Source of the DNA: a phage
Length of the DNA: 64,000 nt
Assembly: GCA_033664045.1 (NCBI GenBank)
Contig: GCA_033664045.1_3674.1
Reading direction: 5' to 3' (one strand)
Below, piece by piece: positions 7,971 through 21,389 of this stretch. The number at the start of each line of letters is the position of its first letter. The stretch's first letter is position 1. The notes beneath the pieces are model-generated. The model worked only from the letters and a program-made list of their open reading frames with translations. It searched no databases and was not told the origin of the DNA. A program made the position numbers and the translations under genes.

Positions 7971-8243
7971 ATGATGAAGTCATGTGGTAGTGTATATTAT
8001 GTTGGTGAGAATGTTCAGGCAGATAGTGTGTGGAAATCCATTAAGTCCACCACCGATGATGCCTTCTTGAGCGGGTTATGTTTCCCCAATCCCGGAGACA
8101 TTCTCCCTCACCCTGGGGATTTTGTTGTCAACAAGACGGACGGTTATACAGTGTGCCTGATGGTTGAAAAAATCTTTTTAGACACTAGACACAATCACCG
8201 TCTTGTGTTAAAATTTCAAGAATGTAAAATGACAATTGCCTAA
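7971..8243 (+). CDS. Hypothetical protein
   Basis: Track ORF; ATG 7971 preferred over TTG 7965. Confidence 0.5.
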   Translation: MMKSCGSVYYVGENVQADSVWKSIKSTTDDAFLSGLCFPNPGDILPHPGDFVVNKTDGYTVCLMVEKIFLDTRHNHRLVLKFQECKMTIA

Positions 8244-8256
8244 GGAGGCCTTACCT

Positions 8257-8613
8257 ATGTCTAAAGTTACTTATCGTGCAGCTATTTACTGCAATGAGCA
8301 CCCAATCAATAATGATGGTCACTGCCTTTTTAAAGAAAATCAGTTGGGCTGCATTGTCCTCCCTGATGAAGGGGAAGGTTATCTGATTGCATTGACAGGG
8401 TTTGAGCCTGAAGCTCTGGAAGCCAATCTGGACTACCTGGTGGAAGAGGGTGCTGCAGACTTGGTTGCCAATGGCCTCTCTGTAAGCCTTGACGAAGTGG
8501 AGCGCTTCATGGGCAATTACCGTGTAGTGCGTGAGTTTACTATCGAGGTGGAAACTCCAGAGTGGGGTAGCACTGAAACTAATGCCGAAGAAAAAGAAGA
8601 GGAGGTAGAATAA
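8257..8613 (+). CDS. Hypothetical acidic protein
   Basis: AGGAGG site then ATG 8257. Confidence 0.55.
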   Translation: MSKVTYRAAIYCNEHPINNDGHCLFKENQLGCIVLPDEGEGYLIALTGFEPEALEANLDYLVEEGAADLVANGLSVSLDEVERFMGNYRVVREFTIEVETPEWGSTETNAEEKEEEVE

Positions 8614-8870
8614 TGAAAGTACAGATCTTGACTAATGCCGAGAAGATGTTTATTGAAGATACACCTTTTGAAGCTGGTGAGCTCCAGTTTGTTTATTTTG
8701 TTGACTTAGATAAGGTGTTTCCTGCACTGAATCTGGGTCTGGATGAAGTTCCTCATAAGGTTTTGTGTCAAGTTGTTCGTGCCTTAGCGGCAGATGGAGA
8801 GTTCCACACCCTTCAAGATATCCAGACCTACGGGTATCTTGAACTACAACGAGAAGAAGAGGTGAACTGA
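8613..8870 (+). CDS. Hypothetical protein
   Basis: GAGGAGG site; overlapping stop/start. Confidence 0.55.
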   Translation: MKVQILTNAEKMFIEDTPFEAGELQFVYFVDLDKVFPALNLGLDEVPHKVLCQVVRALAADGEFHTLQDIQTYGYLELQREEEVN

Positions 8871-8872
8871 TA

Positions 8873-9253
8873 ATGGCCCGGTGGAAGACAACAGTTGACC
8901 TGCATGATCAGTGGTTAGGACGCATCACTGAAGACGGGAAACTAGCGGAGTGGGACAATAAGCATGTTAGCGAGTTGGCAAGCATTGTGGCTGGCAAGTT
9001 ACGCTCCAAGTTCCCTGAACAACTGAATCCTGATAGTTCAAAGTTCGATCCTGAGTTGGAGGATGTTGTATACTACTTCGATACCGTGGATGACTACGAT
9101 GCGTGGCTTGCAGCACGGGAGCTTTACCCACAAGGCTCTGCTATGCGCCAGATGGAAGAAGATTATCCTCCGTGCGAGCAATTTAATAGCGCAATGACTT
9201 GCCTCTACGATTGGGCAGATAAGAACCTTGTCTGGATTCGGACTGCATTCTAG
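8873..9253 (+). CDS. Hypothetical protein
   Basis: Track ORF. Confidence 0.5.
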   Translation: MARWKTTVDLHDQWLGRITEDGKLAEWDNKHVSELASIVAGKLRSKFPEQLNPDSSKFDPELEDVVYYFDTVDDYDAWLAARELYPQGSAMRQMEEDYPPCEQFNSAMTCLYDWADKNLVWIRTAF

Positions 9254-9259
9254 CAGGCG

Positions 9260-9562
9260 GTGGCAAGGATGCCACTTAAAAGAGTAATGAACATGTTATA
9301 CCAGAAACACGAACTTTGTGCAGAAAAAGAGTTAAATTTTGACAAAGTTATCCACAGATATTGTTATGGAAAAACCGGAAGACAACTAAGAAGATGCACT
9401 CCAGCATTCTTTCACCCCAGCAGGCGGCTAAGTCCTGAAGAGGCGACAGCAGAAAGGGTTGCATACAACTGGGAAGTTGTGTACGATATTGACAGATCCG
9501 ATGTGACATCTGTTTTGGAAAACTTTGAAAACACTTACACACAAGTAGAGGACTTTTACTAA
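9260..9562 (+). CDS. Hypothetical protein
   Basis: Track ORF; exact start uncertain. Confidence 0.4.
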   Translation: MARMPLKRVMNMLYQKHELCAEKELNFDKVIHRYCYGKTGRQLRRCTPAFFHPSRRLSPEEATAERVAYNWEVVYDIDRSDVTSVLENFENTYTQVEDFY

Positions 9563-10746
9563 TGTCAAGAAACGTATTTGAAAGTGGTCAAATCACTGTC
9601 CGTGAGTTGCCAGCTATCATTCAGTTCGCCCAGCGTCATAACCGATCTGTCCTGATTTTAGGACCAATGGGCGTGGGTAAGAGCCAGGTGATGAAGCAGA
9701 TTGCAGATAATATGTTCGGTGAGCGAGATGACAACCTGGTTGACGTGCGACTGTCAGATAAAGATCCTGCTGACTTATCTGGGCTACCTATCCCTGTAGA
9801 AGCGGATGGAACTACACGTACAGTGTTTGCAATTCCAGAATTTTGGCCTGCAGATCCGGACTGGAGCGGAATTATCTTTCTAGATGAGCTTACCCATGCA
9901 GATAATTACCTGCAGAAGGTTGCAATGCAAATTATGCTCGACCACAAGTGCGGCACTTATGCATTCCCTAAGGGCTCTGTTTTTGTAGCTGCAGGTAACC
10001 GTTCTACAGATGGTGCTGTTCTTTCAGCGCTTGAAGCACCTCTGGCTAACCGCTTTATCATTGTAGAGGTTACAAGCAATGCAGAGGTGTTTATTGAGGA
10101 CTATGCATTCCTCAACGGGGTGCACTCCTCTGTAATTGGGTATTTGAAAAGAGTTCCATCAGCTATCGATAATTATGAGGCTATGGCTGAGATTAATTGT
10201 CCATCTTTTGCCACACCGCGATCTTGGGTTGCTGCATCTGATATCTTGCACGATTTTGACAGCGGTATTATTTCTGACGCTATGGCCCGTGTTCTTCTGC
10301 AAGGTGCTATTGGTCACACTGCAGCGGTAGAGATCTGGACTTACCACACCAAAAAACGCAACTTACCGGAAATCGGTCGGATTATGGCAGGAGGTTGCAA
10401 AGAATACGTAGGTCCTAAACAGCCAGACATCTTGTGGATTCTTGGATCTGAAGGTTGTATCGCTATTCGTAATATGATGGAAAATGCAAGTATCTCCGAC
10501 GAAGATCTTGTTAGCTGTGTGGCAAACTTCCTCGATTTCCTTTGGGAAAATTTCAAGGACGAGAACCGAGATTTTGTATTCTCAGTCTTTATGGCGATGA
10601 TGAAACCTAATGCCTTAGGAAATGCCTTGCTTATCGGTAAAGGGCGTGACAAGATTGTTGCTCAGCTGATCAAAGCATACCCAAACCTGATGAAGATTGT
10701 AAAAGAGTTTGGTGAAGAGTTTAGCGCCATTTTGGCTAAAGCTTGA
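9562..10746 (+). CDS. MoxR-like AAA+ ATPase
   Basis: Walker A GPMGVGKS, Walker B IIFLDEL, sensor/Arg-finger-like AAGNRS and LANRF. Confidence 0.8.
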   Translation: MSRNVFESGQITVRELPAIIQFAQRHNRSVLILGPMGVGKSQVMKQIADNMFGERDDNLVDVRLSDKDPADLSGLPIPVEADGTTRTVFAIPEFWPADPDWSGIIFLDELTHADNYLQKVAMQIMLDHKCGTYAFPKGSVFVAAGNRSTDGAVLSALEAPLANRFIIVEVTSNAEVFIEDYAFLNGVHSSVIGYLKRVPSAIDNYEAMAEINCPSFATPRSWVAASDILHDFDSGIISDAMARVLLQGAIGHTAAVEIWTYHTKKRNLPEIGRIMAGGCKEYVGPKQPDILWILGSEGCIAIRNMMENASISDEDLVSCVANFLDFLWENFKDENRDFVFSVFMAMMKPNALGNALLIGKGRDKIVAQLIKAYPNLMKIVKEFGEEFSAILAKA

Positions 10747-10755
10747 GGAGGTTGT

Positions 10756-11136
10756 ATGGCTAAAGTAGGTAAGCGGGGAAACTACTTGGTAGTATTGACC
10801 GAGGAGCCGGAGAAGGAGTACGAATGCAGCTCCACTTGCGTGATCGATATCCGAGAAAAAGATGTAGATGAAATCTGGTTTGAAATATTAGATGCTTGCG
10901 ACAGCAGTGATTATTTCTTCATCTATGTCAACGATAAAGCTGGGTTCTTCCATGACGACGGAGAGTTGCCGTATGAAATCTATGAACTTGTAGAGGCTTG
11001 CCATCGTGGAGATGCGGAGTTGTTTGGCTTACGGCTGAAAAGCGGTAAATTCTTCTATCAAGATGAGTGCATGAATCTTCATAACTTTGTAGAGGGAACT
11101 TGCAACGATGGAGAGATTTTGGCACACTACGATTAA
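10756..11136 (+). CDS. Hypothetical protein
   Basis: GAGGAGG site; terminator follows. Confidence 0.55.
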   Translation: MAKVGKRGNYLVVLTEEPEKEYECSSTCVIDIREKDVDEIWFEILDACDSSDYFFIYVNDKAGFFHDDGELPYEIYELVEACHRGDAELFGLRLKSGKFFYQDECMNLHNFVEGTCNDGEILAHYD

Positions 11137-11148
11137 TTTCTAAGACCA

Positions 11149-11175
11149 CCCCGCTTCGGCGGGGATTTTCTATTT
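11149..11175 (+). terminator. Rho-independent terminator
   Basis: CCCCGC-TTCG-GCGGGG hairpin followed by ATTTTCTATTT. Confidence 0.65.
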
Positions 11176-11184
11176 GGAGTTATT

Positions 11185-11685
11185 GTGAAAATTAAGATCT
11201 TTGCTATTATTTTGAGCGCATTTTTATCGCTGCCTGTTGTTGCAGCACCAAAACAAAAAGTATACCATACTTGCAAGCCATCAGATACTAAGGAAAACAT
11301 TCTAGCATGCAATATCTACAGGGAAGCTAGAGGGGATGGCACGATGGGTATGCTGGCATCTGGGTTTGCCACATTAAACAGGAAATCTCACCCTAAATAC
11401 CCAGACACTATAAGAAAGATTGTCTACCAGCCTAACCAGTTTTCGTGGACAAACCACGGCAAAACTTTTAAGGTGACAGAAAAAGATTCATGGGATCACG
11501 CTAAAAGTCTTGCAAAGATGCTTCTAAAGGTCTACAATAACAACCATGTTGCATACATGGCTATGGACATAACAGGTGGAGCAACACACTACCATACAAC
11601 CAAAGTACGACCGAAATGGGCAAAAAAGATGCAGAGGACAGCTCAATTCGGGAGTCATATCTACTACAAGGAGCGCAATAAATGA
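11185..11685 (+). CDS. Secreted SleB-like cell-wall hydrolase (Hydrolase_2 family)
   Basis: N-terminal signal peptide MKIKIFAIILSAFLSLPVVAA; NIYREARG…LNRKSHPKYPDTIRKIVYQPNQFSW matches conserved SleB/CwlJ motifs; GTG start. Confidence 0.6.
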   Translation: MKIKIFAIILSAFLSLPVVAAPKQKVYHTCKPSDTKENILACNIYREARGDGTMGMLASGFATLNRKSHPKYPDTIRKIVYQPNQFSWTNHGKTFKVTEKDSWDHAKSLAKMLLKVYNNNHVAYMAMDITGGATHYHTTKVRPKWAKKMQRTAQFGSHIYYKERNK

Positions 11686-13664
11686 TTGTAAACAGTAATG
11701 AAACTAAAGCAGTACTAACCGGAAATATGGAGGTCACCAGGGGCTCAATTTCTCTGAACAAAGAGACTTTTGGGCTAATCATTAAAGGGATTTACGAAGA
11801 TAAGGTGCTGGCAAGCTGCCGTGAACCAATCTTCAATGCTGTGGACTCTCATGTTGAGTCTGGACGGAGTGATGTACCGATCATCATTCACTCTCCTACA
11901 GACCTTGAACCATACTTCTTTGTGCAGGACGTTGGATTGGGCATGTCAGAAGAGATGGTCCGCAACACGTTCATGAACCTTGGAGAGTCAACCAAACGCA
12001 ACAGCAACGCCCTGGTAGGTAATAAAGGTGTTGGCTCAAAGGCTCCGTTCAGCATGGTGGACACTTTCGATGTTATCAGTGTGCACAATGGTGTTGAAAG
12101 CACATATCTATTGTTCTTGGATCAGGGTATCCCAAACGTTACCAAGATCCGAGAGCGGAAGACTGAAGAGCACAACGGGGTAAAAGTTCAGTTCCATGTT
12201 AAGAAAGAGCATGTCCTGAAATATCGCACCGCTATTGCATCATGCCTACGCTATGCAAAATTCCCGTTCACCGTCACTGATCCGATGACGAGCAAGATGC
12301 TAGAGGGTGACAAGGTAGAGGCGCAATACTATTACGAAAAAGATGGTTGGAAGATGACCATCTTGAAGGGCTATACCAGCTCTGACGAGAGTCGTGTGGT
12401 AATGGGCCACCAACCTTACCGCTCTAAGTTCCTGGAGACATTGACCGATTACCCTGCAATCTGCGTGGAAATTCCTATTGGGGATTGCAATATTAACCCT
12501 GGGCGTGAATGGACCATAGAGGGCCATGACGACGGTGGATTCCAGGATCGCCTGGAGGCCTTTGTCAAAGAAGGTATACGTCTTCGCGGGGCAGAAGTTG
12601 TTGCAGAACTGGAGACGGCAAAAACCTCCGCAGAAGCACGTGAGATGATGAAGAACAGTGGAGTGTTCGGGCACATCTTCGGTAAGAATTTTATGTGGGA
12701 CCGATGGGAAGAGACAGGACTAGGAAGTTTGGGAGATTGTGAGATCTTCGCTGGAGGCTTAAATAAAGGCCGCATAGGTTACGCTTGTTACGGAAAGGTA
12801 GAATTCTTACGGGGAGTCTATTTAGTATTTAACGACGGAGACGGCAAATATAACCGAAATAAGTGTAACTACTTAAGCGAGATCACCGGACGCAACGTTT
12901 TCTATTGCCGTAACACGGATCTGGTGAAAGAGTTTAAAGAGGCGGCACACCATCCGTTCTTTGCAGATACGGTAAAATTGTTATCAGAGCTACCTCGCCG
13001 ACCTGCGAAGAAAGGTGAAACAAAAACTCATTATGAGCCAGGTTATTGGGTTAAAAAACTTGAGAAGGATGGTTACTTCCGTCGTGAGCGTATTACTAAG
13101 GCAGAGTTCAAGAAGATTAAGCACTGCATTCCTTATGAGGGTGATATCCAACGTGGAAGTTGTTGGCTGGGACAGCTGAGTAACATCTACCAGCAAAATT
13201 ATGATCGTGTGCGTGCGGCACTCCAGATTCCTGAAGGGGAAGATCTGTACCTGGTATCAGAATCCCGTCTGCTTTGGACTGATCCTGATTGCCAGTATGT
13301 TACAGAGAAAAATGTGGAACATTTGTTGAAAGAGGACGCCTGGAAATTCTTACTGACTCGCGCAGCAAATGAAACTTCATATGACAGCCTGTATAGACAA
13401 TTAGGGAAAATTATCCCCATGCAAGATTTTGGAAATTATCGGCCACATTTCCACAAGTGGGAAGGTAACACCGCGTGGAAGCACAGTGAGCTAAATCATC
13501 GTGCCAAAATCTTAATCGCCAACCGAGTCAAGTGCGGGAAGGCCTATATTGCAAGATTGGAAAAGAAATACCCACTTTTGAAGCATGTAGGCTTGAAATA
13601 TTGGGACACTCCTGCTATGATTGAATACCGTGAACTGATCGATACAAAGAATAACATCAAATAA
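11682..13664 (+). CDS. GHKL/Hsp90-like ATPase domain protein, possibly rIIA-like
   Basis: N-box REPIFNAVDS, G1 box DVGLGMS, G2 box GNKGVGSKAPF; 660 aa; followed by a 401-aa partner as in rIIA/rIIB. Confidence 0.55.
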   Translation: MIVNSNETKAVLTGNMEVTRGSISLNKETFGLIIKGIYEDKVLASCREPIFNAVDSHVESGRSDVPIIIHSPTDLEPYFFVQDVGLGMSEEMVRNTFMNLGESTKRNSNALVGNKGVGSKAPFSMVDTFDVISVHNGVESTYLLFLDQGIPNVTKIRERKTEEHNGVKVQFHVKKEHVLKYRTAIASCLRYAKFPFTVTDPMTSKMLEGDKVEAQYYYEKDGWKMTILKGYTSSDESRVVMGHQPYRSKFLETLTDYPAICVEIPIGDCNINPGREWTIEGHDDGGFQDRLEAFVKEGIRLRGAEVVAELETAKTSAEAREMMKNSGVFGHIFGKNFMWDRWEETGLGSLGDCEIFAGGLNKGRIGYACYGKVEFLRGVYLVFNDGDGKYNRNKCNYLSEITGRNVFYCRNTDLVKEFKEAAHHPFFADTVKLLSELPRRPAKKGETKTHYEPGYWVKKLEKDGYFRRERITKAEFKKIKHCIPYEGDIQRGSCWLGQLSNIYQQNYDRVRAALQIPEGEDLYLVSESRLLWTDPDCQYVTEKNVEHLLKEDAWKFLLTRAANETSYDSLYRQLGKIIPMQDFGNYRPHFHKWEGNTAWKHSELNHRAKILIANRVKCGKAYIARLEKKYPLLKHVGLKYWDTPAMIEYRELIDTKNNIK

Positions 13665-13674
13665 GGAGACCAAG

Positions 13675-14880
13675 ATGATTTTCATCTACGAACATTTCAA
13701 AACCCGTAAAGAAGCACGAGACCGCCGTGCAGAACTGGAGAAAAAGGGTTTCACATGTGCCATTGAGAAAGGCGACACAACCTGGACACTGGCAGTGGGT
13801 GCCCCAGAGTTGTTCGATCCTGACCGTGACAGCGTCTGCTACACCCGTGAGGATTTTGAAACCCGCGAAGAGGCCCGTTTATTTCGATATGGTCTGGAAG
13901 ATAACGGCAAGTACGCTATGATCTTAGATTTAGGCGAAGGTTCCGTTAAACGTTGGGGCGTGGTATATCCCCTGTGTGTTGTTCACGGTGTGGGGTTCAC
14001 TGGGGTGGCAATCAAGTCAGAAGAACCTTTAGTAGAAGTCAAAGATCCGGTGCTGGAGGTGGTGAGCAGTGTGTCTCAGCAACAGACTCGAAGCATCGAG
14101 CCTTTGGTAGTTATTTGTGGGGAACTCCTCCAGATCACCTGCAACGAAGGTATTTTTGAAATTCGCCGCAGTGAAAGTGAGGAAGTTTACCAGAAAGTCT
14201 TCGACCATATCTCTGTTCAGGAATATGATGAGGCAATTGGTGAAATCCTTGTCTGGCTGGAACGCAAGAATGAGTTCACCACACTTGCAGACAACCTGAT
14301 CATGAAAGATGGTAAGCTCTACTACTACGGTGTAGAGATGCGATCCACCATTGCAAAGAAAATTGAGAAAGACTATGCAGACGGAACACTGGATGACCGC
14401 TATGTGAAATTCCTCGTTCGCCTGCTACGCAATCCTTCTGCAAAATCTGTAAACATGCTCTACGATTTTATGCAGGCCAACGATATCCAGATTGCAGAAG
14501 ATGGTCGAATCGTTTGCTACAAAGGTGTTCAGTTTAACGGCAGCAAGTGGGTGGATTGGCACAGTGGTAAAGTTCCACAATACCAGGGTGCTTTTGTATC
14601 CATGCCTCGTAACTTTGTAGAGGATGATCCGGAAGCTGCGTGCTCCTATGGCTTACACTGCGCCAGCAAAGAGTATGCAAAAAGCTACGGCACTGTAATG
14701 ACTGTTATGGTTGACCCTGCAGATGTGGTTAGTGTGCCATACCAACACAATAGCGCCAAGTGCCGTGCATGCCGCTATGAGATTGTGGTAGCTCCGGAAG
14801 CACGCAAGGACGGAGACCCGATTGAATACGTGGTTGACAGAGATGGTAACACTATCGACATTCTTTACGAGGAGGTGTAA
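13675..14880 (+). CDS. Hypothetical protein with N-terminal tandem repeat, possibly rIIB-like
   Basis: Track ORF; two repeats FKTRKEARDRRAELEKKGF / FETREEARLFRYGLEDNGK; translationally coupled to both neighbours. Confidence 0.5.
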   Translation: MIFIYEHFKTRKEARDRRAELEKKGFTCAIEKGDTTWTLAVGAPELFDPDRDSVCYTREDFETREEARLFRYGLEDNGKYAMILDLGEGSVKRWGVVYPLCVVHGVGFTGVAIKSEEPLVEVKDPVLEVVSSVSQQQTRSIEPLVVICGELLQITCNEGIFEIRRSESEEVYQKVFDHISVQEYDEAIGEILVWLERKNEFTTLADNLIMKDGKLYYYGVEMRSTIAKKIEKDYADGTLDDRYVKFLVRLLRNPSAKSVNMLYDFMQANDIQIAEDGRIVCYKGVQFNGSKWVDWHSGKVPQYQGAFVSMPRNFVEDDPEAACSYGLHCASKEYAKSYGTVMTVMVDPADVVSVPYQHNSAKCRACRYEIVVAPEARKDGDPIEYVVDRDGNTIDILYEEV

Positions 14881-16250
14881 TGGAAAAAGGGCAGTATGAT
14901 GTAGGCACAGATGCTGCCCTCGTTGCAATCATGAGCGGTGAGAATGTCTTCGTTTCAGGACCCGCAGGTTGTGGGAAGACGTACCTCATCAACATGATCC
15001 AGTCAATGTATGGAGACTCTTGCATAACGGTTGCCCCGACAGGGGTAGCCGCTTTAAACGTTAATGGAGCAACAGCACACCGAACCTTCGATCTTGCAGC
15101 AGGTGTGAGCATGGAGTCAGACTGGACCGCAATAAGGGCAAAAACAGCAAAGCCTTTGAAAAGCAAGGCATTTACCATCCTAATTATCGATGAAATCTCT
15201 ATGATCCGTGCTGATAAGTTTATAGAGATGGATAGGAAACTTCGCTTCCTTCGAAAAAATGACAAACCTTTCGGAGGCATACAGGTCATATTGTTTGGCG
15301 ACTTTTACCAGGCACCTCCTGTTGTCTCTTCTATGGAGAAGGAAGCCTACTTCAACTTCTACCATACGGACCTGTGTTGCTATACCGAATCTTGGAAAGA
15401 GCTTGACCTCCACAACATAGCCCTAGTAGATCAGTTCCGACAGGAGTCTATTCGATTTGCCACAATGCTCAACTGTGTTCGTGAGGGTCGTCGCATAAAA
15501 GAGGTTGTAGCAGAGCTTAATGCTCGCTGTTACAAAGGCGGTGTACCAACAGACGCTCTCACAATTTGCGCCACCAACAAACAAGCAGAGGAAGTGAACA
15601 GAAGGTTCTATGATGCCATCAACGCCCCAGAGAAGGTATACACTGGTGAAATGAAGGGTAAGTTTCCCTCCACCCTACCAGTTGAGCAGGAGATGAAGTT
15701 GAAAATTGGCATGAAAGTTATGATAACCGCCAACGATGTTGACCCAACGCACAAAGTACCTTATTATGTTAACGGAACACGTGCCACAATTGTTAAATTT
15801 AAGAACAAGGCAGTGGTGGTAGAGCTTGAAGATGGAACACAGGTTGACATAGAGCAGATGTTGTGGGAGAATAACGAATATAAGCCATCTCAGAGATACA
15901 ACATTGCAGAAAGGAAGATGGAGAAGTTTATAGAGAGGGTAGTGATCGGGTCATATAAGCAACTCCCTCTGAAATCTGGGTACGCCGTAACATCTCATAA
16001 AAGTCAAGGACTTACACTAGATTGTTACAACCTAGACCTTGGAAAGAACGGAGCTTTCTCTCCTGGGATGACGTATGTCGCTTTGAGTAGAGTTAAGACA
16101 ATACAAGGAATAAACTTGTTGCGTCCACTAAGAGAGGTTGACATTATTGTTGACCCGCGAGTCGTAGAGTTTTACAATACAACATTCCCTGACTTAGACA
16201 AAATTGTCAGGAAAGATTTTGAAACCAGAGCCGAAGAGGGGGACGTATGA
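14880..16250 (+). CDS. Pif1/RecD/Dda-like DNA helicase
   Basis: Walker A GPAGCGKT, Walker B LIIDEISM, GDFYQAPPV, VTSHKSQGLT. Confidence 0.85.
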   Translation: MEKGQYDVGTDAALVAIMSGENVFVSGPAGCGKTYLINMIQSMYGDSCITVAPTGVAALNVNGATAHRTFDLAAGVSMESDWTAIRAKTAKPLKSKAFTILIIDEISMIRADKFIEMDRKLRFLRKNDKPFGGIQVILFGDFYQAPPVVSSMEKEAYFNFYHTDLCCYTESWKELDLHNIALVDQFRQESIRFATMLNCVREGRRIKEVVAELNARCYKGGVPTDALTICATNKQAEEVNRRFYDAINAPEKVYTGEMKGKFPSTLPVEQEMKLKIGMKVMITANDVDPTHKVPYYVNGTRATIVKFKNKAVVVELEDGTQVDIEQMLWENNEYKPSQRYNIAERKMEKFIERVVIGSYKQLPLKSGYAVTSHKSQGLTLDCYNLDLGKNGAFSPGMTYVALSRVKTIQGINLLRPLREVDIIVDPRVVEFYNTTFPDLDKIVRKDFETRAEEGDV

Positions 16251-16588
16251 GTTTGTGGAGAAATATAGTTAACTACGTGTGCGGCAATCCAACTCCTGAA
16301 GAGAAGGATGTTGTGATTCACGATTTTACTAAAAGATCTCGTGAAAAAGATCTACTGCTAACAAAGGTGACTGATAAAGATCCTGCAGTAGGGGACTGGG
16401 CAGGTTTTGCGTTTACATCGGACAAATACACCTTTAACAAAGGTGACTACCTTGTTGTAGATTTTAACGAAGACATCGAGGGTGCTGAACCTTACTATCA
16501 GACCCTTATTGTTGCAGGGTGTGTTGATCTCTCTGCAGGCATGCACAGTTTGATTCTTTTTGAGCTTGACTCTGAAGACCTTGAGTAG
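16247..16588 (+). CDS. Hypothetical protein
   Basis: Track ORF; 4-nt overlap with helicase. Confidence 0.5.
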   Translation: MSLWRNIVNYVCGNPTPEEKDVVIHDFTKRSREKDLLLTKVTDKDPAVGDWAGFAFTSDKYTFNKGDYLVVDFNEDIEGAEPYYQTLIVAGCVDLSAGMHSLILFELDSEDLE

Positions 16589-16648
16589 TAAGATGTGAGT
16601 ATAAAGGGGAGGCACTCCTCCCCACAAAAACTAAGGAAGCACTAAACG

Positions 16649-16951
16649 ATGAAACGTTATAAACCATACACTTTTGAAATCGATTTCGAACTTGACGATA
16701 TGTTTACTGTAGAAGCTCAGGCAGTTGTCCAGTTGCCAGACCCGGAGTGCCGTGATTCTGATGTTGACTATTACGGATTTAGACAAATTACCGATGTGCA
16801 TGTTTACCACAACGGTGAAGAGGTGGACTTCCACCAACTGCCAAACGATTTGCGACACTCAATTTACAAACGTGCAGCCCGTGAACTAGAGTCCTATCTG
16901 GATGCAGCGACGACAGCAGCTGCATTTGCTGAAGAAGTGGGAGGTTTCTGA
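16649..16951 (+). CDS. Hypothetical protein
   Basis: Track ORF with ribosome-binding site. Confidence 0.5.
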   Translation: MKRYKPYTFEIDFELDDMFTVEAQAVVQLPDPECRDSDVDYYGFRQITDVHVYHNGEEVDFHQLPNDLRHSIYKRAARELESYLDAATTAAAFAEEVGGF

Positions 16952-17349
16952 TGATTACAGGTGTGAAGATTATCCAATACCACTTAACCAAATTGGAAGA
17001 TGCTGAAAAAGAGCTTGCAGAAGTTCTGAATAGTGGATATACTTTACTATCATGCGCCTGCTCAGACACCTACGTTGTGTGGACACTTATCCGGAAGGAA
17101 GAGCCTGCGGGGATCTTGGTGCCAAACCCTAAGATCCTTAGTGAGGTGGATGACTACGCTCAGGACGGCCTGCCAGAAGGCTGGGAAGTATGGGAAGGTG
17201 GTGAAAACCCTGCACCAGGTAAGTGGGTAAAATACAAACTACGTAGCGGTGCGCAGTACGCTGACTACTCTGATGACCTAGACTGGAGTCATTCTTCACC
17301 AGGATCGTCTGCAAGTTCATATGATATCGTTGCTTTTCAGGAAGAATAA
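16951..17349 (+). CDS. Hypothetical protein
   Basis: Track ORF. Confidence 0.5.
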   Translation: MITGVKIIQYHLTKLEDAEKELAEVLNSGYTLLSCACSDTYVVWTLIRKEEPAGILVPNPKILSEVDDYAQDGLPEGWEVWEGGENPAPGKWVKYKLRSGAQYADYSDDLDWSHSSPGSSASSYDIVAFQEE

Positions 17350-17361
17350 GGAGATAGTGTT

Positions 17362-17844
17362 ATGTCAGATTTTATGTGGAAAGTAGGTTACGCAGCTCCT
17401 GAAATGTGTGAGGCTTGCTTTGTGAAAATAGGCCGCGAGGATATCGACAAAGTGATCCTTAAGTTTCGTGATGTAGCTGTGATCGGCAACCGAGTGCTTA
17501 AGCACTTAAAGAATCTGAAGCTCACCAAAAAGAAGTTCTTCGGACTTTTCGAAGAGAAAGTTGATGCTTGGACCCATTGCATTCAGGAAGCTAAATCTCA
17601 CTACAGTGCTATCGTTACCCCAGAACGGGTAGCCAAGATGGAAGGACTCATCAACAGCACAGAGTTTGAGTGCCTAAAGGCTGCCCTTGATAGTTATCCG
17701 AAATGCCTCAAGCACTTGGACAAGTATGTGGAAAAGGATGGGGAAATGTATCTCACCCTGGACGCATATTATGAGATGCAAGAAATTTTAAATTTAGATT
17801 TGACATTGGTATCCACCGAGTATACAATAGGTATCCGGGTTTAA
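17362..17844 (+). CDS. Hypothetical protein
   Basis: AGGAGA site; terminator follows. Confidence 0.5.
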   Translation: MSDFMWKVGYAAPEMCEACFVKIGREDIDKVILKFRDVAVIGNRVLKHLKNLKLTKKKFFGLFEEKVDAWTHCIQEAKSHYSAIVTPERVAKMEGLINSTEFECLKAALDSYPKCLKHLDKYVEKDGEMYLTLDAYYEMQEILNLDLTLVSTEYTIGIRV

Positions 17845-17850
17845 CACTAG

Positions 17851-17878
17851 GCCCTGCCCGAAAGGGTGGGGCTTTTTG
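17851..17878 (+). terminator. Rho-independent terminator (copy 1 of a conserved hairpin)
   Basis: GCCCTGCCC-GAAA-GGGTGGGGC followed by TTTTT; identical 22-bp core at 28658. Confidence 0.7.
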
Positions 17879-17895
17879 CATTAGGAGACAGCAAA

Positions 17896-18657
17896 TTGAA
17901 ATTTATCTACAAAGAACACTACCACAAAGGTGTTGTGTGGAGTCTATTTGACGGGTCTGGTGGTGCAGTCATTGACTGGGCAAAAGCTGGATATCTGTGC
18001 CTGTGCTTTAATGCAGAAGGTGCTGATCACGGCAGCTATGCAGAGGTGATAACCGATCATCCCAACATTCACTACGTGGATTATTGGATTGACCCATGGT
18101 TCCCTCAGGAAACTTTTTGCATGTACCCAGCTCCAGACTTTATTCTTGCATTTCCTCCGTGCACGCATTTAGCGGTATCAGGTGCCGCACATTTTAAGAA
18201 AAAGCTGGCTAAGGACCCCATGATCCAAATTAATGCTGTAAAGGATGCTCGGGTTGCGGAAGAACTGGGAGAGATTTACGATTGCCCGTGGCATGTAGAG
18301 AATCCTGTTGGTGTTATGTCCACACTGTGGCGCAAACCTGATTACCGTTTTCATCCTTCTGACTATGGCGGGTATTTACCGGAGGATGATGTAAACCCCT
18401 GGTTTCCTGAATTTATAGCTCCACGTGATGCCTATCCAAAAATAACTTGCGGCTGGATAGGTAATGGATTTATAATCCCGGCCACAAAACCTGTCCCGCA
18501 AATAGTTGACGCGGTTAGCGGGTATTCCATGCAACACGCCAAGCTGGGTGGAAAGAGTGCAAGAACGAAGATGATCCGAAGCCTTACACCACGTGGCTGG
18601 GCAAAAGCCGTATTCTTAGCAAACGAGCCTGTAGTAAGGAGAAGGGCCAATGGTTGA
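17896..18657 (+). CDS. DNA cytosine-5 methyltransferase-like protein
   Basis: LFDGSGG (motif I-like), FPPCT (motif IV Pro-Cys-like), ENPVG (motif VI ENV-like); TTG start after AGGAGA; short for a canonical enzyme. Confidence 0.4.
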   Translation: MKFIYKEHYHKGVVWSLFDGSGGAVIDWAKAGYLCLCFNAEGADHGSYAEVITDHPNIHYVDYWIDPWFPQETFCMYPAPDFILAFPPCTHLAVSGAAHFKKKLAKDPMIQINAVKDARVAEELGEIYDCPWHVENPVGVMSTLWRKPDYRFHPSDYGGYLPEDDVNPWFPEFIAPRDAYPKITCGWIGNGFIIPATKPVPQIVDAVSGYSMQHAKLGGKSARTKMIRSLTPRGWAKAVFLANEPVVRRRANG

Positions 18658-19321
18658 CTGGAGCAAGTATTTCACCTACAGTGACGGCAAACTGTTCTGG
18701 GCGTACACTGCAAAAGCCGGAAGGGGCAGGGTTATACATTACGCAGGTGAGGAGGCCACAGGTACAGATAAAAATGGCTATAGAGTGATATATGTGTCAG
18801 GTGTTGGGAGTGTTCGTAGGCATAGAATAGTTTGGGAGATGCATTACGGGGAGATACCCGAAGGACTTGTTGTGCGGCACAAGAACGACATAGCAGGCGA
18901 TGATAGGGTAGAGAACTTAGTCCTAGGTACACAGGGCGATAATGCACGAGACATGATCTACAGTGACAAACTGAGCATTAACAATACCTCAGGGTGTCGA
19001 GGTGTACGCTACCATAAAGGCATAAAAAGATGGATTGCATCTGTTGGAGACATATACTTAGGATGTTTTAAGACAAAAGAGGATGCAATTGCATGCAGAA
19101 AGTTATGGGAGAAGGGAAAATTCGTCCCGCAAGAGTTGGATGTTAGAAACACTAGCGGTGTAACAGGAGTGTTCTATGTGCCGAGCTCTGGAAGGTGGAG
19201 AGTAAGAGTGCAAAGCGGCAAAAAGAGAAAGAGCTATGGCACTTACAATACTTTAGAAGAAGCAAAAGCTGTAAGAGATAGAGTGATGAAAGAGATTGAG
19301 GAGTTTAAAGATGGGGAATAA
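18650..19321 (+). CDS. HNH homing endonuclease with AP2 DNA-binding repeats
   Basis: HRIVWEMHYGEIPEGLVVRHKNDIAGDDRVENL (HNH); two AP2-like repeats (GCRGVRYHKGIKRWIASV…, GVTGVFYVPSSGRWRVRV…). Confidence 0.75.
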   Translation: MVDWSKYFTYSDGKLFWAYTAKAGRGRVIHYAGEEATGTDKNGYRVIYVSGVGSVRRHRIVWEMHYGEIPEGLVVRHKNDIAGDDRVENLVLGTQGDNARDMIYSDKLSINNTSGCRGVRYHKGIKRWIASVGDIYLGCFKTKEDAIACRKLWEKGKFVPQELDVRNTSGVTGVFYVPSSGRWRVRVQSGKKRKSYGTYNTLEEAKAVRDRVMKEIEEFKDGE

Positions 19322-21389
19322 GTTTATATCCTCTGCATATAGCCGCTATGGAGAACCCAACCCGGTTGCAACAAGATACAAAAGTGGGGGCAGTATGAAA
19401 CGAGACTATCGTGATGAAAAAGAGGTTGAAACTGTAGAGACTGTTTTAGAAAATACTAAAATTGTCCCTGTTCCACAACAGAATATAGGGCTAATGGCTG
19501 CTCAATATTTTGGTGTGCGATCAGCATTATCCCAAGAAGATGGTGTGACAGTCACTGCAACATATTTTCCATATTATGACCGCTACGGAAATCTGTCTGG
19601 TTTCAAAAAACGTGATTGGTCTAAGCCGAAAGAGCAGAAAGGACACTGGTCTGTAGTAGGCATCGTAAAGGCTAACTCCCAGATGTTTGGTCAAAAGCTG
19701 TGTGCATCTTCCAACAACCGTAAGCAGATTAACGTTTGTGAGGGGGAAGGTGATGTTATTGCAGCATGGCAGGCTGCATATCAGATACAAGTAAAAGGGA
19801 TTCTCACCAACGCTAAAGCCCCGGCAAAGGTGAAGCAGTGGGCTAAAGAGGTCCAAGACGGGATCGACGCAGTTATCAACGGTGGTGATCTGGCAGGAAA
19901 ACCCTGCCTGCCTTTTGTTGGAATTAACTGTGGATGTGCAAACGCAGTAGATACTTTTGCAAACAATGAGAAGTTTATCCGTAGCTATGGAACAGTTGTG
20001 CTGGCAATGGATAACGATGCAGCTAACGAGGTAGAGAAGCAAAAACACGTCATCAAAGGTGTTGAGGCCACGCACAATATCGCAGCATTTTTGATGGCTG
20101 ATAACGTTTACCACGTAGAATACCCCGGTGAAGTAAACGACCCTGATGGTGTAAAAGATATCCGAGACATGCTGAAGGCTAAAAAGCTGGAAGATATTGT
20201 CAACATGTTCCGGCATCCTGTTAAATATGTACCTGATGCTGTGTCGGATTTAGAAGACTTCTCTATCGAGTCTTTGCGGAAAAAGACTTCCAACGGGGTA
20301 GATATCAGTGCAGAGTTCCCAAAACTGCAAAAAATGCTAAAAGGCTTGCACAAAGGGACACTCGTAATGCTTACAGGTCCATCAGGCGGCGGTAAAACAA
20401 CCGTGGCTAAAAAACTGGAACACTGTATTGCAAGATACCTAATGGACCCGACATGCCCGAAGGCCGATGACTATGAAGAGGATGATCGTCTATGTATGAT
20501 CCATCTTGAGGAGGATCCAGAGGAAGCAATTAACTCCTTGTATGCAAACCAGTTAGGGTTTGATGTTAAAGAGTTTGTTGAAGATCCTAGCCAGTTTTTA
20601 ACTGATCAAGAACACGCAGAGATTCACCAATCATGGGCAAAAGCTGGAAAAATCAAAGTGTTCAAACATTTCGGGTCTATTCCGGTGGACGAGTTGATTA
20701 CCAAGCTTAAGCAAATGGTTTGCCTGTACCATTGTCGTTATATTGTGCTGGATCACCTGTCCATGGTAATTTCAGGGCTTAATGTTAAGGATGAGCGAAA
20801 AGAACTGGACATGGCTATGACCCAACTGGCTGCGTTTTGTAAGCAGTTTAACGTGTTTATCTTGGTGATCGCTCACCTCAAACGTACAGAGATTGTGCCT
20901 CCTAAAGACAAGGATGGTAACCCGTTACCTTTCTGGTATCCTGTGCGAAAAGAGAATTTGCGAGGATCGGCTGGGCTTGAACAGTTGAGTTGGGTAGTCA
21001 TAGGTGTCGAGGCCGAAGAAATGGTGGATCGTTCTCGTGGGCGTGTCCGTTTAGTAGGTCTTAAAAACCGTCCAGCAAAAACATTGGGTATTGCAGACAC
21101 TTTGGTTATGGACCCACATACAGGTAAGTTCCATGATGCCAGTAATTGGTACTGGGACAAAGAAATGCAAATGTTTACAGATGGAGAAGGTGGGGAGGTT
21201 GTTTGGAGACCTCAGGCTATGTTTGAGGATCAGGAGCATGCAGTTGTAGAAACACCTATGGGCAAGGTTGTGGCTGATAAGGTTGTAACTCCTACTGTTA
21301 AGCCTGTTGACACGCAGGAAGACCTCCAGTACGATGATCCGTCCTCTGACCATGTTCCTGGTTTTGAGGATGATGAAACACCTTTTTAA
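19311..21389 (+). CDS. Primase-helicase (T7 gp4-like)
   Basis: TOPRIM-like EGEGDVIAAW / AMDNDAANE; helicase motifs LTGPSGGGKTT, YIVLDHLSMV, LVIAHLKR. Confidence 0.85.
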   Translation: MGNKFISSAYSRYGEPNPVATRYKSGGSMKRDYRDEKEVETVETVLENTKIVPVPQQNIGLMAAQYFGVRSALSQEDGVTVTATYFPYYDRYGNLSGFKKRDWSKPKEQKGHWSVVGIVKANSQMFGQKLCASSNNRKQINVCEGEGDVIAAWQAAYQIQVKGILTNAKAPAKVKQWAKEVQDGIDAVINGGDLAGKPCLPFVGINCGCANAVDTFANNEKFIRSYGTVVLAMDNDAANEVEKQKHVIKGVEATHNIAAFLMADNVYHVEYPGEVNDPDGVKDIRDMLKAKKLEDIVNMFRHPVKYVPDAVSDLEDFSIESLRKKTSNGVDISAEFPKLQKMLKGLHKGTLVMLTGPSGGGKTTVAKKLEHCIARYLMDPTCPKADDYEEDDRLCMIHLEEDPEEAINSLYANQLGFDVKEFVEDPSQFLTDQEHAEIHQSWAKAGKIKVFKHFGSIPVDELITKLKQMVCLYHCRYIVLDHLSMVISGLNVKDERKELDMAMTQLAAFCKQFNVFILVIAHLKRTEIVPPKDKDGNPLPFWYPVRKENLRGSAGLEQLSWVVIGVEAEEMVDRSRGRVRLVGLKNRPAKTLGIADTLVMDPHTGKFHDASNWYWDKEMQMFTDGEGGEVVWRPQAMFEDQEHAVVETPMGKVVADKVVTPTVKPVDTQEDLQYDDPSSDHVPGFEDDETPF

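Follow-up and report, generated by a model that had tools for sequence, protein, structure and literature searches.

Within a 64,000-nucleotide (nt) stretch of phage DNA (contig GCA_033664045.1_3674.1 of the GenBank assembly GCA_033664045.1; hereafter, the window), three consecutive genes between positions 11682 and 16250 encode proteins of 660, 401, and 456 amino acids (aa), which a first-pass annotation made from the letters alone had described as a GHKL ATPase, a repeat-containing partner, and a Pif1-like helicase. All three open reading frames (ORFs) have the extent, length, and strand given there (Table 1). Very probably, the first two proteins are the rIIA and rIIB orthologues of a Vequintavirus, and the third one is a separate accessory helicase of the Dda/Pif1 type (SF1B), adjoining rIIB by the gene order of the subfamily. 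Megablast of positions 11000-16600 retrieved 121 phage records, with at least 80% of the query covered in 84 of them at 90-97% identity; nearly all matches are Escherichia Vequintavirus (rV5-like) phages and, on this nucleotide similarity, the source genome is an rV5-like Vequintavirus coliphage. The locus is already known and annotated in dozens of Vequintavirus genomes: in near-identical GenBank phages (~97% identity across the region; more than 80 Vequintavirus records, among them isim and Bas54) the genes carry the labels rIIA, rIIB, and DNA helicase, and the BASEL phage annotation has “membrane integrity protector” for both rII genes and “DNA helicase” for the third one.

Table 1. Features of the rII locus and its surroundings (positions in the window, except for the last row, where they are positions in the loci named).
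Feature	Position	Strand	Details
Terminator-like GC hairpin with T-rich tail	11149-11164	+	Upstream of the hydrolase gene; consensus match only
SleB/Hydrolase_2 cell-wall hydrolase	11185-11685	+	Pfam Hydrolase_2, E 2.1e-19
Hydrolase/rIIA junction			Hydrolase stop overlaps rIIA start, ATGA
Probable rIIA orthologue, 660 aa	11682-13664	+	N-terminal GHKL ATPase and transducer-like domain; rIIA-family-specific C-terminal region
rIIA GHKL motifs	11823-12035	+	N box 11823-11846, G1 11928-11942, G2 12018-12035
rIIA/rIIB junction	13662-13677	+	TAA, Shine-Dalgarno AAGGAG overlapping the stop, 10-nt spacer, rIIB ATG
Probable rIIB orthologue, 401 aa	13675-14880	+	PHROG 609, BLASTP to T4 rIIB, annotated as rIIB in isim and Bas54
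rIIB tandem N-terminal repeat	13681-13983	+	Two β-α-β-β units, residues 3-42 and 53-103
rIIB disordered linker (predicted)	13975-14097	+	Residues 101-141; pLDDT <50, indel-rich columns, length varies among relatives
rIIB conserved core	14104-14865	+	Residues 144-397; NPS, C323-x-x-G-L-H328, P-x-D-V-V-S-x-P, K362-x-R364 invariant
rIIB/helicase junction	14870-14882	+	Shine-Dalgarno AGGAGG, then TAATG (14878-14882), one-base stop/start overlap
Dda/Pif1-like SF1B DNA helicase, 456 aa	14880-16250	+	Pfam PIF1, PHROG 325
Helicase Walker A	14958-14981	+	GPAGCGKT, residues 27-34
Helicase Walker B	15177-15194	+	ILIIDE, residues 100-105
Helicase/113-aa ORF junction			Helicase stop overlaps next start, ATGA
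GC-rich hairpin	16606-16623	unstranded	60-nt gap after the 113-aa ORF; T-run on the - strand only
Strong terminator-like site	17849-17874		
Stand-alone repeat ORFs	L082 12874-13182; L084 and L090 13176-13433; L085 8627-8917		Repeat HMM

The 660-aa protein matches the PHROG 612 “RIIA” profile over practically its entire length (residues 1-658 against positions 1-724 of 725, E 7.5e-124), and T4 rIIA itself is assigned to the same PHROG (E 9e-250). BLASTP aligns the two proteins directly at 28% identity across residues 1-198 (E 2e-21). Pfam HATPase_c_3 covers residues 50-147 (E 1.7e-8), and the N, G1, and G2 boxes that the first-pass annotation had reported can be located in the translation as E48xxxN52xxD55, D83xG85xG87, and G113xxG116xG118, respectively, their residues being invariant in a 23-sequence rIIA alignment reaching down to ~20% identity. 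Conservation of the catalytic Glu and of the ATP-lid residues makes it likely that rIIA works as a GHKL machine driven by ATP. Published work likewise describes rIIA as having a GHKL ATPase at its N-terminus and a C-terminal part that varies (PMC7824862).

The structure model of rIIA resembles the ATPase and transducer module of Hsp90, GyrB, and MutL, at 10-18% identity; as modeled, the protein has a Bergerat fold and an adjoining transducer-like domain, as in the GHL/MORC class. This likeness is of the superfamily level and does not mean membership in a chaperone or topoisomerase family, because identity in the structural matches is so low and the sequence searches did not come near the family thresholds: a phmmer search of rIIA against PDB gave nothing significant (E ≥ 0.07), and NCBIfam gave only sub-threshold matches (the HSP90 family, 18.3 bits with the cut-off of 455). 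Weak matches to Hsp90, TRAP1, and sacsin in these searches could still suggest a GHKL enzyme of another kind (a phage chaperone, a topoisomerase, or a MutL-type protein), with only a coincidental pairing of the 660-aa and 401-aa proteins. We give this explanation hardly any credence, as the Hsp90 C-terminal, Toprim, and MutL C-terminal domains are all missing from the protein, and the full-length match to PHROG 612 together with the invariant position of the gene upstream of rIIB effectively refutes it.

The assignment of the 401-aa protein rests on its C-terminal part. Residues 132-375 match PHROG 609 “RIIB” (E 1.8e-61), which also contains T4 rIIB, and BLASTP aligns residues 172-371 with residues 107-304 of T4 rIIB at 37% identity (E 4e-39). 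A sequence search against PDB yielded nothing significant for this protein, and the earlier statement that it lacks a recognizable catalytic motif stands, the invariant residues of its core being C323-x-x-G-L-H328, D347/D350, K362, and R364. All rIIB homologues collected (P0001-P0120) carry the precomputed Pfam accession PF26926, which the local Pfam scan of rIIB does not return; probably, a more recent Pfam release models the rIIB core. A predicted protein of 498 aa, encoded on a metagenomic contig of 3.3 kb, joins TPR repeats to a segment 98% identical to the C-terminal half of rIIB, and is probably an assembly chimera. The first-pass annotation had offered the rIIA/rIIB-like pair as the most economical reading, naming as the opposite outcome a clear chaperone or topoisomerase homology of the 660-aa protein along with no rIIB-like similarity of the 401-aa protein. 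The profile searches it proposed for both proteins returned PHROG 612 and PHROG 609 instead, and the pair is further supported by the direct BLASTP matches to both T4 proteins and by the GenBank annotation.

The 456-aa protein matches Pfam PIF1 (PF05970, E 9.3e-33, above the cut-off), along with many P-loop families, and, over its full length, PHROG 325 “Dda-like helicase” (E 1.9e-111), to which T4 Dda belongs, too. Its direct BLASTP similarity to T4 Dda is weak (27% over 172 residues, E 8e-6). With the Walker A and B motifs in place, the Pif1/Dda-type helicase of the first-pass annotation is thus confirmed.

The description of the three genes as one translationally coupled unit fares differently. 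The reported overlap of the rIIB stop with the helicase start is there and comprises one base (TAATG), but rIIA and rIIB are separated by a 10-nt spacer, and the packing extends beyond the trio, to the hydrolase gene on one side and to the 113-aa ORF on the other, so the unit was overstated. Because stop and start overlap at eight out of 16 consecutive junctions of the plus-strand block 8236-21389, tight packing is a property of the whole block, and not of rIIA, rIIB, and the helicase gene. The hairpins at 11149-11164 and 16606-16623 may be the 5′ and 3′ bounds of a hydrolase–rIIA–rIIB–helicase–orf113 transcription unit; these boundaries are only suggestive because neither sigma-70 promoter matches (29 vs. 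24.7 ± 5.2) nor terminator matches (16 vs. 11.4 ± 3.9) are enriched over shuffles. Neither Rfam families nor tRNAs were found in the region.

Gene order was compared in the annotated neighborhoods of T4, FelixO1, Kuttervirus PhaxI, N4-like pSb-1, Rhodococcus phage Weasels2, Pseudomonas phage Paride, Erwinia phage Fifi318, and Seunavirus SSE121, and in 80 IMG/VR loci gathered with a six-sequence rIIB-core alignment, with all ORFs scanned by phmmer. In every locus where the contig permits the check (at least eight lineages and the 80 IMG/VR loci), rIIA lies directly upstream of rIIB; rIIA/rIIB loci of large myoviruses and N4-like phages have been known for a long time. The next gene after rIIB encodes a Pif1-like helicase in 11 out of 87 loci; in all 11, rIIA is of the Vequintavirinae type (E ≤ 1e-130), and the contigs measure 37-148 kb, with nine longer than 117 kb. 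In all other lineages, no helicase was found within the ~7 kb flanks of rIIB (76 out of 87 loci are without it, ~75 being assessable); one Vequintavirinae-like locus ends just after rIIB, so it is not assessable for the helicase. The adjacency of rIIB and the helicase gene is a clade-specific gene order fixed in Vequintavirinae, and not a conserved module or a functional unit. The earlier remark that coupling of the pair to a helicase is unusual is right in that other rII lineages lack it, but within Vequintavirinae it is the rule, reflecting the local order in a packed block.

A competing explanation is that rIIA, rIIB, and the helicase do form one Vequintavirinae module, where, e.g., the rII proteins anchor replicating DNA or the replisome at the envelope, the Dda-like helicase is their partner in handling the DNA, and translational coupling keeps the stoichiometry. 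It would agree with the overlapping or small-gap adjacency persisting in Vequintavirus, in Seunavirus, and in related contigs whose rIIB is only ~35-40% identical, and with the arrangement in T4, where rIIA neighbors topoisomerase genes and dda, oriented alike, is found at a distance of ~7 kb. It would also agree with a preprint on Tmn, in which RIIB is described as a replisome component anchoring the replisome to the membrane (10.64898/2026.03.01.708804). However, none of the other lineages examined has the helicase gene near rIIB, overlaps between neighboring genes are common throughout the block, and the genetic data on phage Bas54 separate the helicase from the pair; we thus consider a common module unlikely.

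Bas54 has the same gene order, bas54_0065 (hydrolase), bas54_0066 (rIIA), bas54_0067 (rIIB), and bas54_0068 (helicase) (10.1101/2025.11.20.689424), and rIIA, rIIB, and the helicase of the window share 98.0-99.7% identity with their Bas54 counterparts. In this HIDEN-SEQ preprint, each of the three genes is individually dispensable, i.e., “Non-essential,” on Escherichia coli K-12, with 90 out of 101, 56 out of 59, and 66 out of 73 TA sites hit, respectively. In competition on the clinical E. coli CFE311, the helicase gene is conditionally essential (log2 fold change, log2FC, -6.32, q 0), whereas rIIA (-0.01) and rIIB (-0.34) are neutral (10.1101/2025.11.20.689424); the sheets for CFE303 and CFE311 carry the same console command (311), and thus the depletion is attributed to CFE311 only. 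Because the helicase is depleted on this host while rIIA and rIIB are unaffected, it is genetically separable from the rII pair. The helicase depletion is not discussed in the main text of the preprint, where only bas54_0063 and bas54_0140 are named, as required against the predicted system DS-28. The former is an anti-defense gene required to overcome the predicted DS-28 of CFE311 (10.1101/2025.11.20.689424); a MoxR-like AAA+ ATPase encoded at positions 9562-10746 of the window (PHROG 1297, E 1.4e-110) is 99.7% identical to its product.

The N-terminal part of rIIB differs from that of its T4 counterpart. The protein does contain the tandem repeat noticed in the first pass: its local self-alignment score of 44 (shuffle mean 20.4 ± 4.0) was reached by none of 2000 shuffles, and a hidden Markov model (HMM) of the repeat finds two copies (i-E 1.5e-13 and 1.5e-14). 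A repeat scan of the DNA detected no counterpart, only short two-copy chance matches in the region. In the AlphaFold2 model (confidence score, pLDDT, 73), two β-α-β-β units are followed by a disordered linker and a well-predicted core (residues 144-397). Vequintavirinae-like rIIB proteins conserve the signature F-x-[ST]-R-x-[ED]-A-R ... W in both repeat copies, and the HMM finds two copies in 11 such proteins and a single one each in L017 and L018.

A helix-turn-helix (HTH) module was looked for at the rIIB N-terminus, and the tandem β-α-β-β repeat was found in its place. T4, FelixO1, and Kuttervirus rIIB begin with HTH-like modules (several HTH matches in residues 7-50 of the T4 protein; HTH_38, E 6e-8, in that of PhaxI), whereas rIIB of the window begins with two repeats and a ~40-residue disordered linker, and that of the Pseudomonas jumbo-phage Paride consists of the core only, without any N-terminal module. 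Since only 131 out of 2878 phage records with tblastn relatives of rIIB cover at least 80% of the protein, its N-terminus is, judging by this coverage, lineage-specific. Taken together, these sequence comparisons indicate that rIIB is built of a conserved core and a swappable N-terminal module; the latter varies across the family and, hence, does not define it. Such an architecture fits the classical observations on T4 rIIB, whose N-terminal B1 segment is reportedly dispensable, a property said to have been exploited in the r1589 fusion and in the Crick–Brenner frameshift work. A fusion of the r1589 kind is described in PMC8594841. The lineage-specific module is the only new point at the locus, and a minor one. 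The same repeat also occurs as stand-alone ORFs of 85-102 aa (PHROG 5089; HMM E from ~4e-8 to 9e-8) in FelixO1-like phages, 5-6 kb downstream of rIIB.

One could go further and propose that the Vequintavirinae rII system has been rewired, with the HTH of rIIB exchanged for a tandem SPOR-like/EHEE repeat and rIIB fixed beside a Dda-like helicase. We regard this as improbable; if true, it could mean that this lineage has its own way of holding the replisome or replicating DNA at the envelope, or that rIIB has acquired a new ligand. The swap between the HTH and β-α-β-β modules among lineages may help to dissect how rIIB is sensed by Tmn and by the CARD/gasdermin system.

The “SPOR-like” label of the repeat is itself unproven. 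Pfam SPOR (PF05036) scores 23.4 bits on the isolated N-terminus of rIIB (cut-off 21), and 19.3 bits, i.e., below the cut-off, in the full-length scan, and the match spans one repeat only. The SPOR domain is a ~70-residue RNP-like fold of two ~35-residue repeats, which is periplasmic and binds denuded peptidoglycan. Upstream of rIIA, a SleB-like hydrolase gene of the Hydrolase_2 family, whose stop overlaps the rIIA start and whose own start overlaps no gene, lies within the early/replication block; its product has an apparent N-terminal signal peptide (MKIKIFAIILSAFLSLPVVAAP...). Together, the SPOR score and this neighbor would suit an arrangement in which the rIIB repeat binds peptidoglycan and works with the hydrolase, the block being a unit for envelope remodeling or lysis timing. 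However, rIIB has neither a signal peptide nor a transmembrane (TM) segment, so the module would be cytoplasmic, and the hydrolase–rII adjacency is seen in Vequintavirinae only; such a role is very improbable. Prediction of membrane association, which the first-pass annotation had suggested, gave no TM helix in either rII protein of the window, nor in T4 rIIA and rIIB (maximal KD19 0.93 and 1.69 for rIIA and rIIB here, 1.18 and 0.89 for those of T4). The rIIB stretch with the highest value, residues 95-113, was considered as a membrane helix and rejected: in the model it forms a β-strand and part of the disordered linker, and it is not conserved.

Functionally, rII genes are defined by mutants that lyse rapidly and fail on RexAB-carrying lambda lysogens, and are otherwise dispensable. 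By analogy with T4, rIIA and rIIB most likely would act as a non-essential early/middle accessory pair, before the late functions. rIIA would contribute a GHKL ATPase with its Hsp90/MutL/GyrB-like ATPase–transducer module, and rIIB would be its interacting partner, composed of the lineage-variable N-terminal module and the conserved C-terminal core. The pair would protect the infected cell from membrane-targeting abortive-infection systems of the RexAB type: rIIA and rIIB of T-even phages are required against RexAB, and only in its presence (PMC8594841; 10.1101/2025.11.20.689424). Which defense systems the Vequintavirus pair may counter is deduced from these relatives. By the same analogy, rIIB could itself be the molecule sensed by other defenses, as RIIB of T-even phages triggers the Lysobacter CARD/gasdermin system (PMC10312443), and activates the Tmn NTPase, to which it binds directly (10.64898/2026.03.01.708804, where its role as the membrane anchor of the replisome is cited). 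The Dda-like helicase, placed in the tightly packed early/replication block and separate from the pair, most likely would serve replication and recombination, or overcome a host barrier in CFE311, independently of rII.

Several observations weigh against assigning the T4-like role to this pair. The likeness of rIIA to T4 rIIA beyond the N-terminal ~200 residues is seen by the profile only, and not by BLASTP; the N-terminal module of rIIB differs from the HTH of T4, which may entail a somewhat different mode of action; and, with no TM segment predicted in either protein, any membrane association would be peripheral or indirect. Further, rIIA and rIIB of Bas54 have no phenotype on the hosts whose HIDEN-SEQ data are considered here.

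Within 11682-16250, rV5, isim (isim_64-62), and Bas54 (bas54_0066-0068) have the same genes, order, and junctions as the window, and nothing of substance differs. The differences lie outside the rII genes. An N6-adenine methyltransferase gene (~1.33 kb) situated between the 113-aa and 100-aa ORFs in isim and Bas54 is missing here (~16589-16648; blastn breakpoints 16644-16652), its place being taken by the 60-nt spacer with the GC hairpin. Relative to isim, the window has extra 672 bp at 18642-19313, with an ORF (18650-19321) for a homing-endonuclease-like protein with HNH_3 (E 5e-17) and AP2 (E 5.8e-11) domains, inserted between the genes for a Dcm-like methylase and a primase/helicase. Sixteen unannotated GenBank records titled “Campylobacter phage” (MG0656xx) are ~97% identical to the E. 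coli Vequintavirus region; this host label is probably wrong or due to contamination.

Comparison with T4 summarizes both the common ground and the differences. rIIA of the window (660 aa) and T4 rIIA (AAD42647, 725 aa) share the GHKL N, G1, and G2 motifs, PHROG 612, and the place directly upstream of rIIB on the same strand, but T4 rIIA is flanked by rIIA.1 and the topoisomerase genes gp60/gp39, and rIIA here by the cell-wall hydrolase gene. Similarly, rIIB and T4 rIIB (AAD42649) share the C-terminal core, 37% identical over ~200 residues, with the common motifs NPS, CSxGLH, PxDVVSxP, and KxR, and both genes are placed after rIIA; the next gene is that of the helicase here, and denB.1/denB in T4. 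The helicase has in common with T4 Dda and the Pif1-RecD2 helicases of SF1B the Walker A and B motifs, the SF1B motif set, the Pif1-type 2B region, and PHROG 325, and, like T4 Dda, is dispensable in the laboratory host. Its gene directly follows rIIB, whereas T4 dda lies ~7 kb from rIIA.

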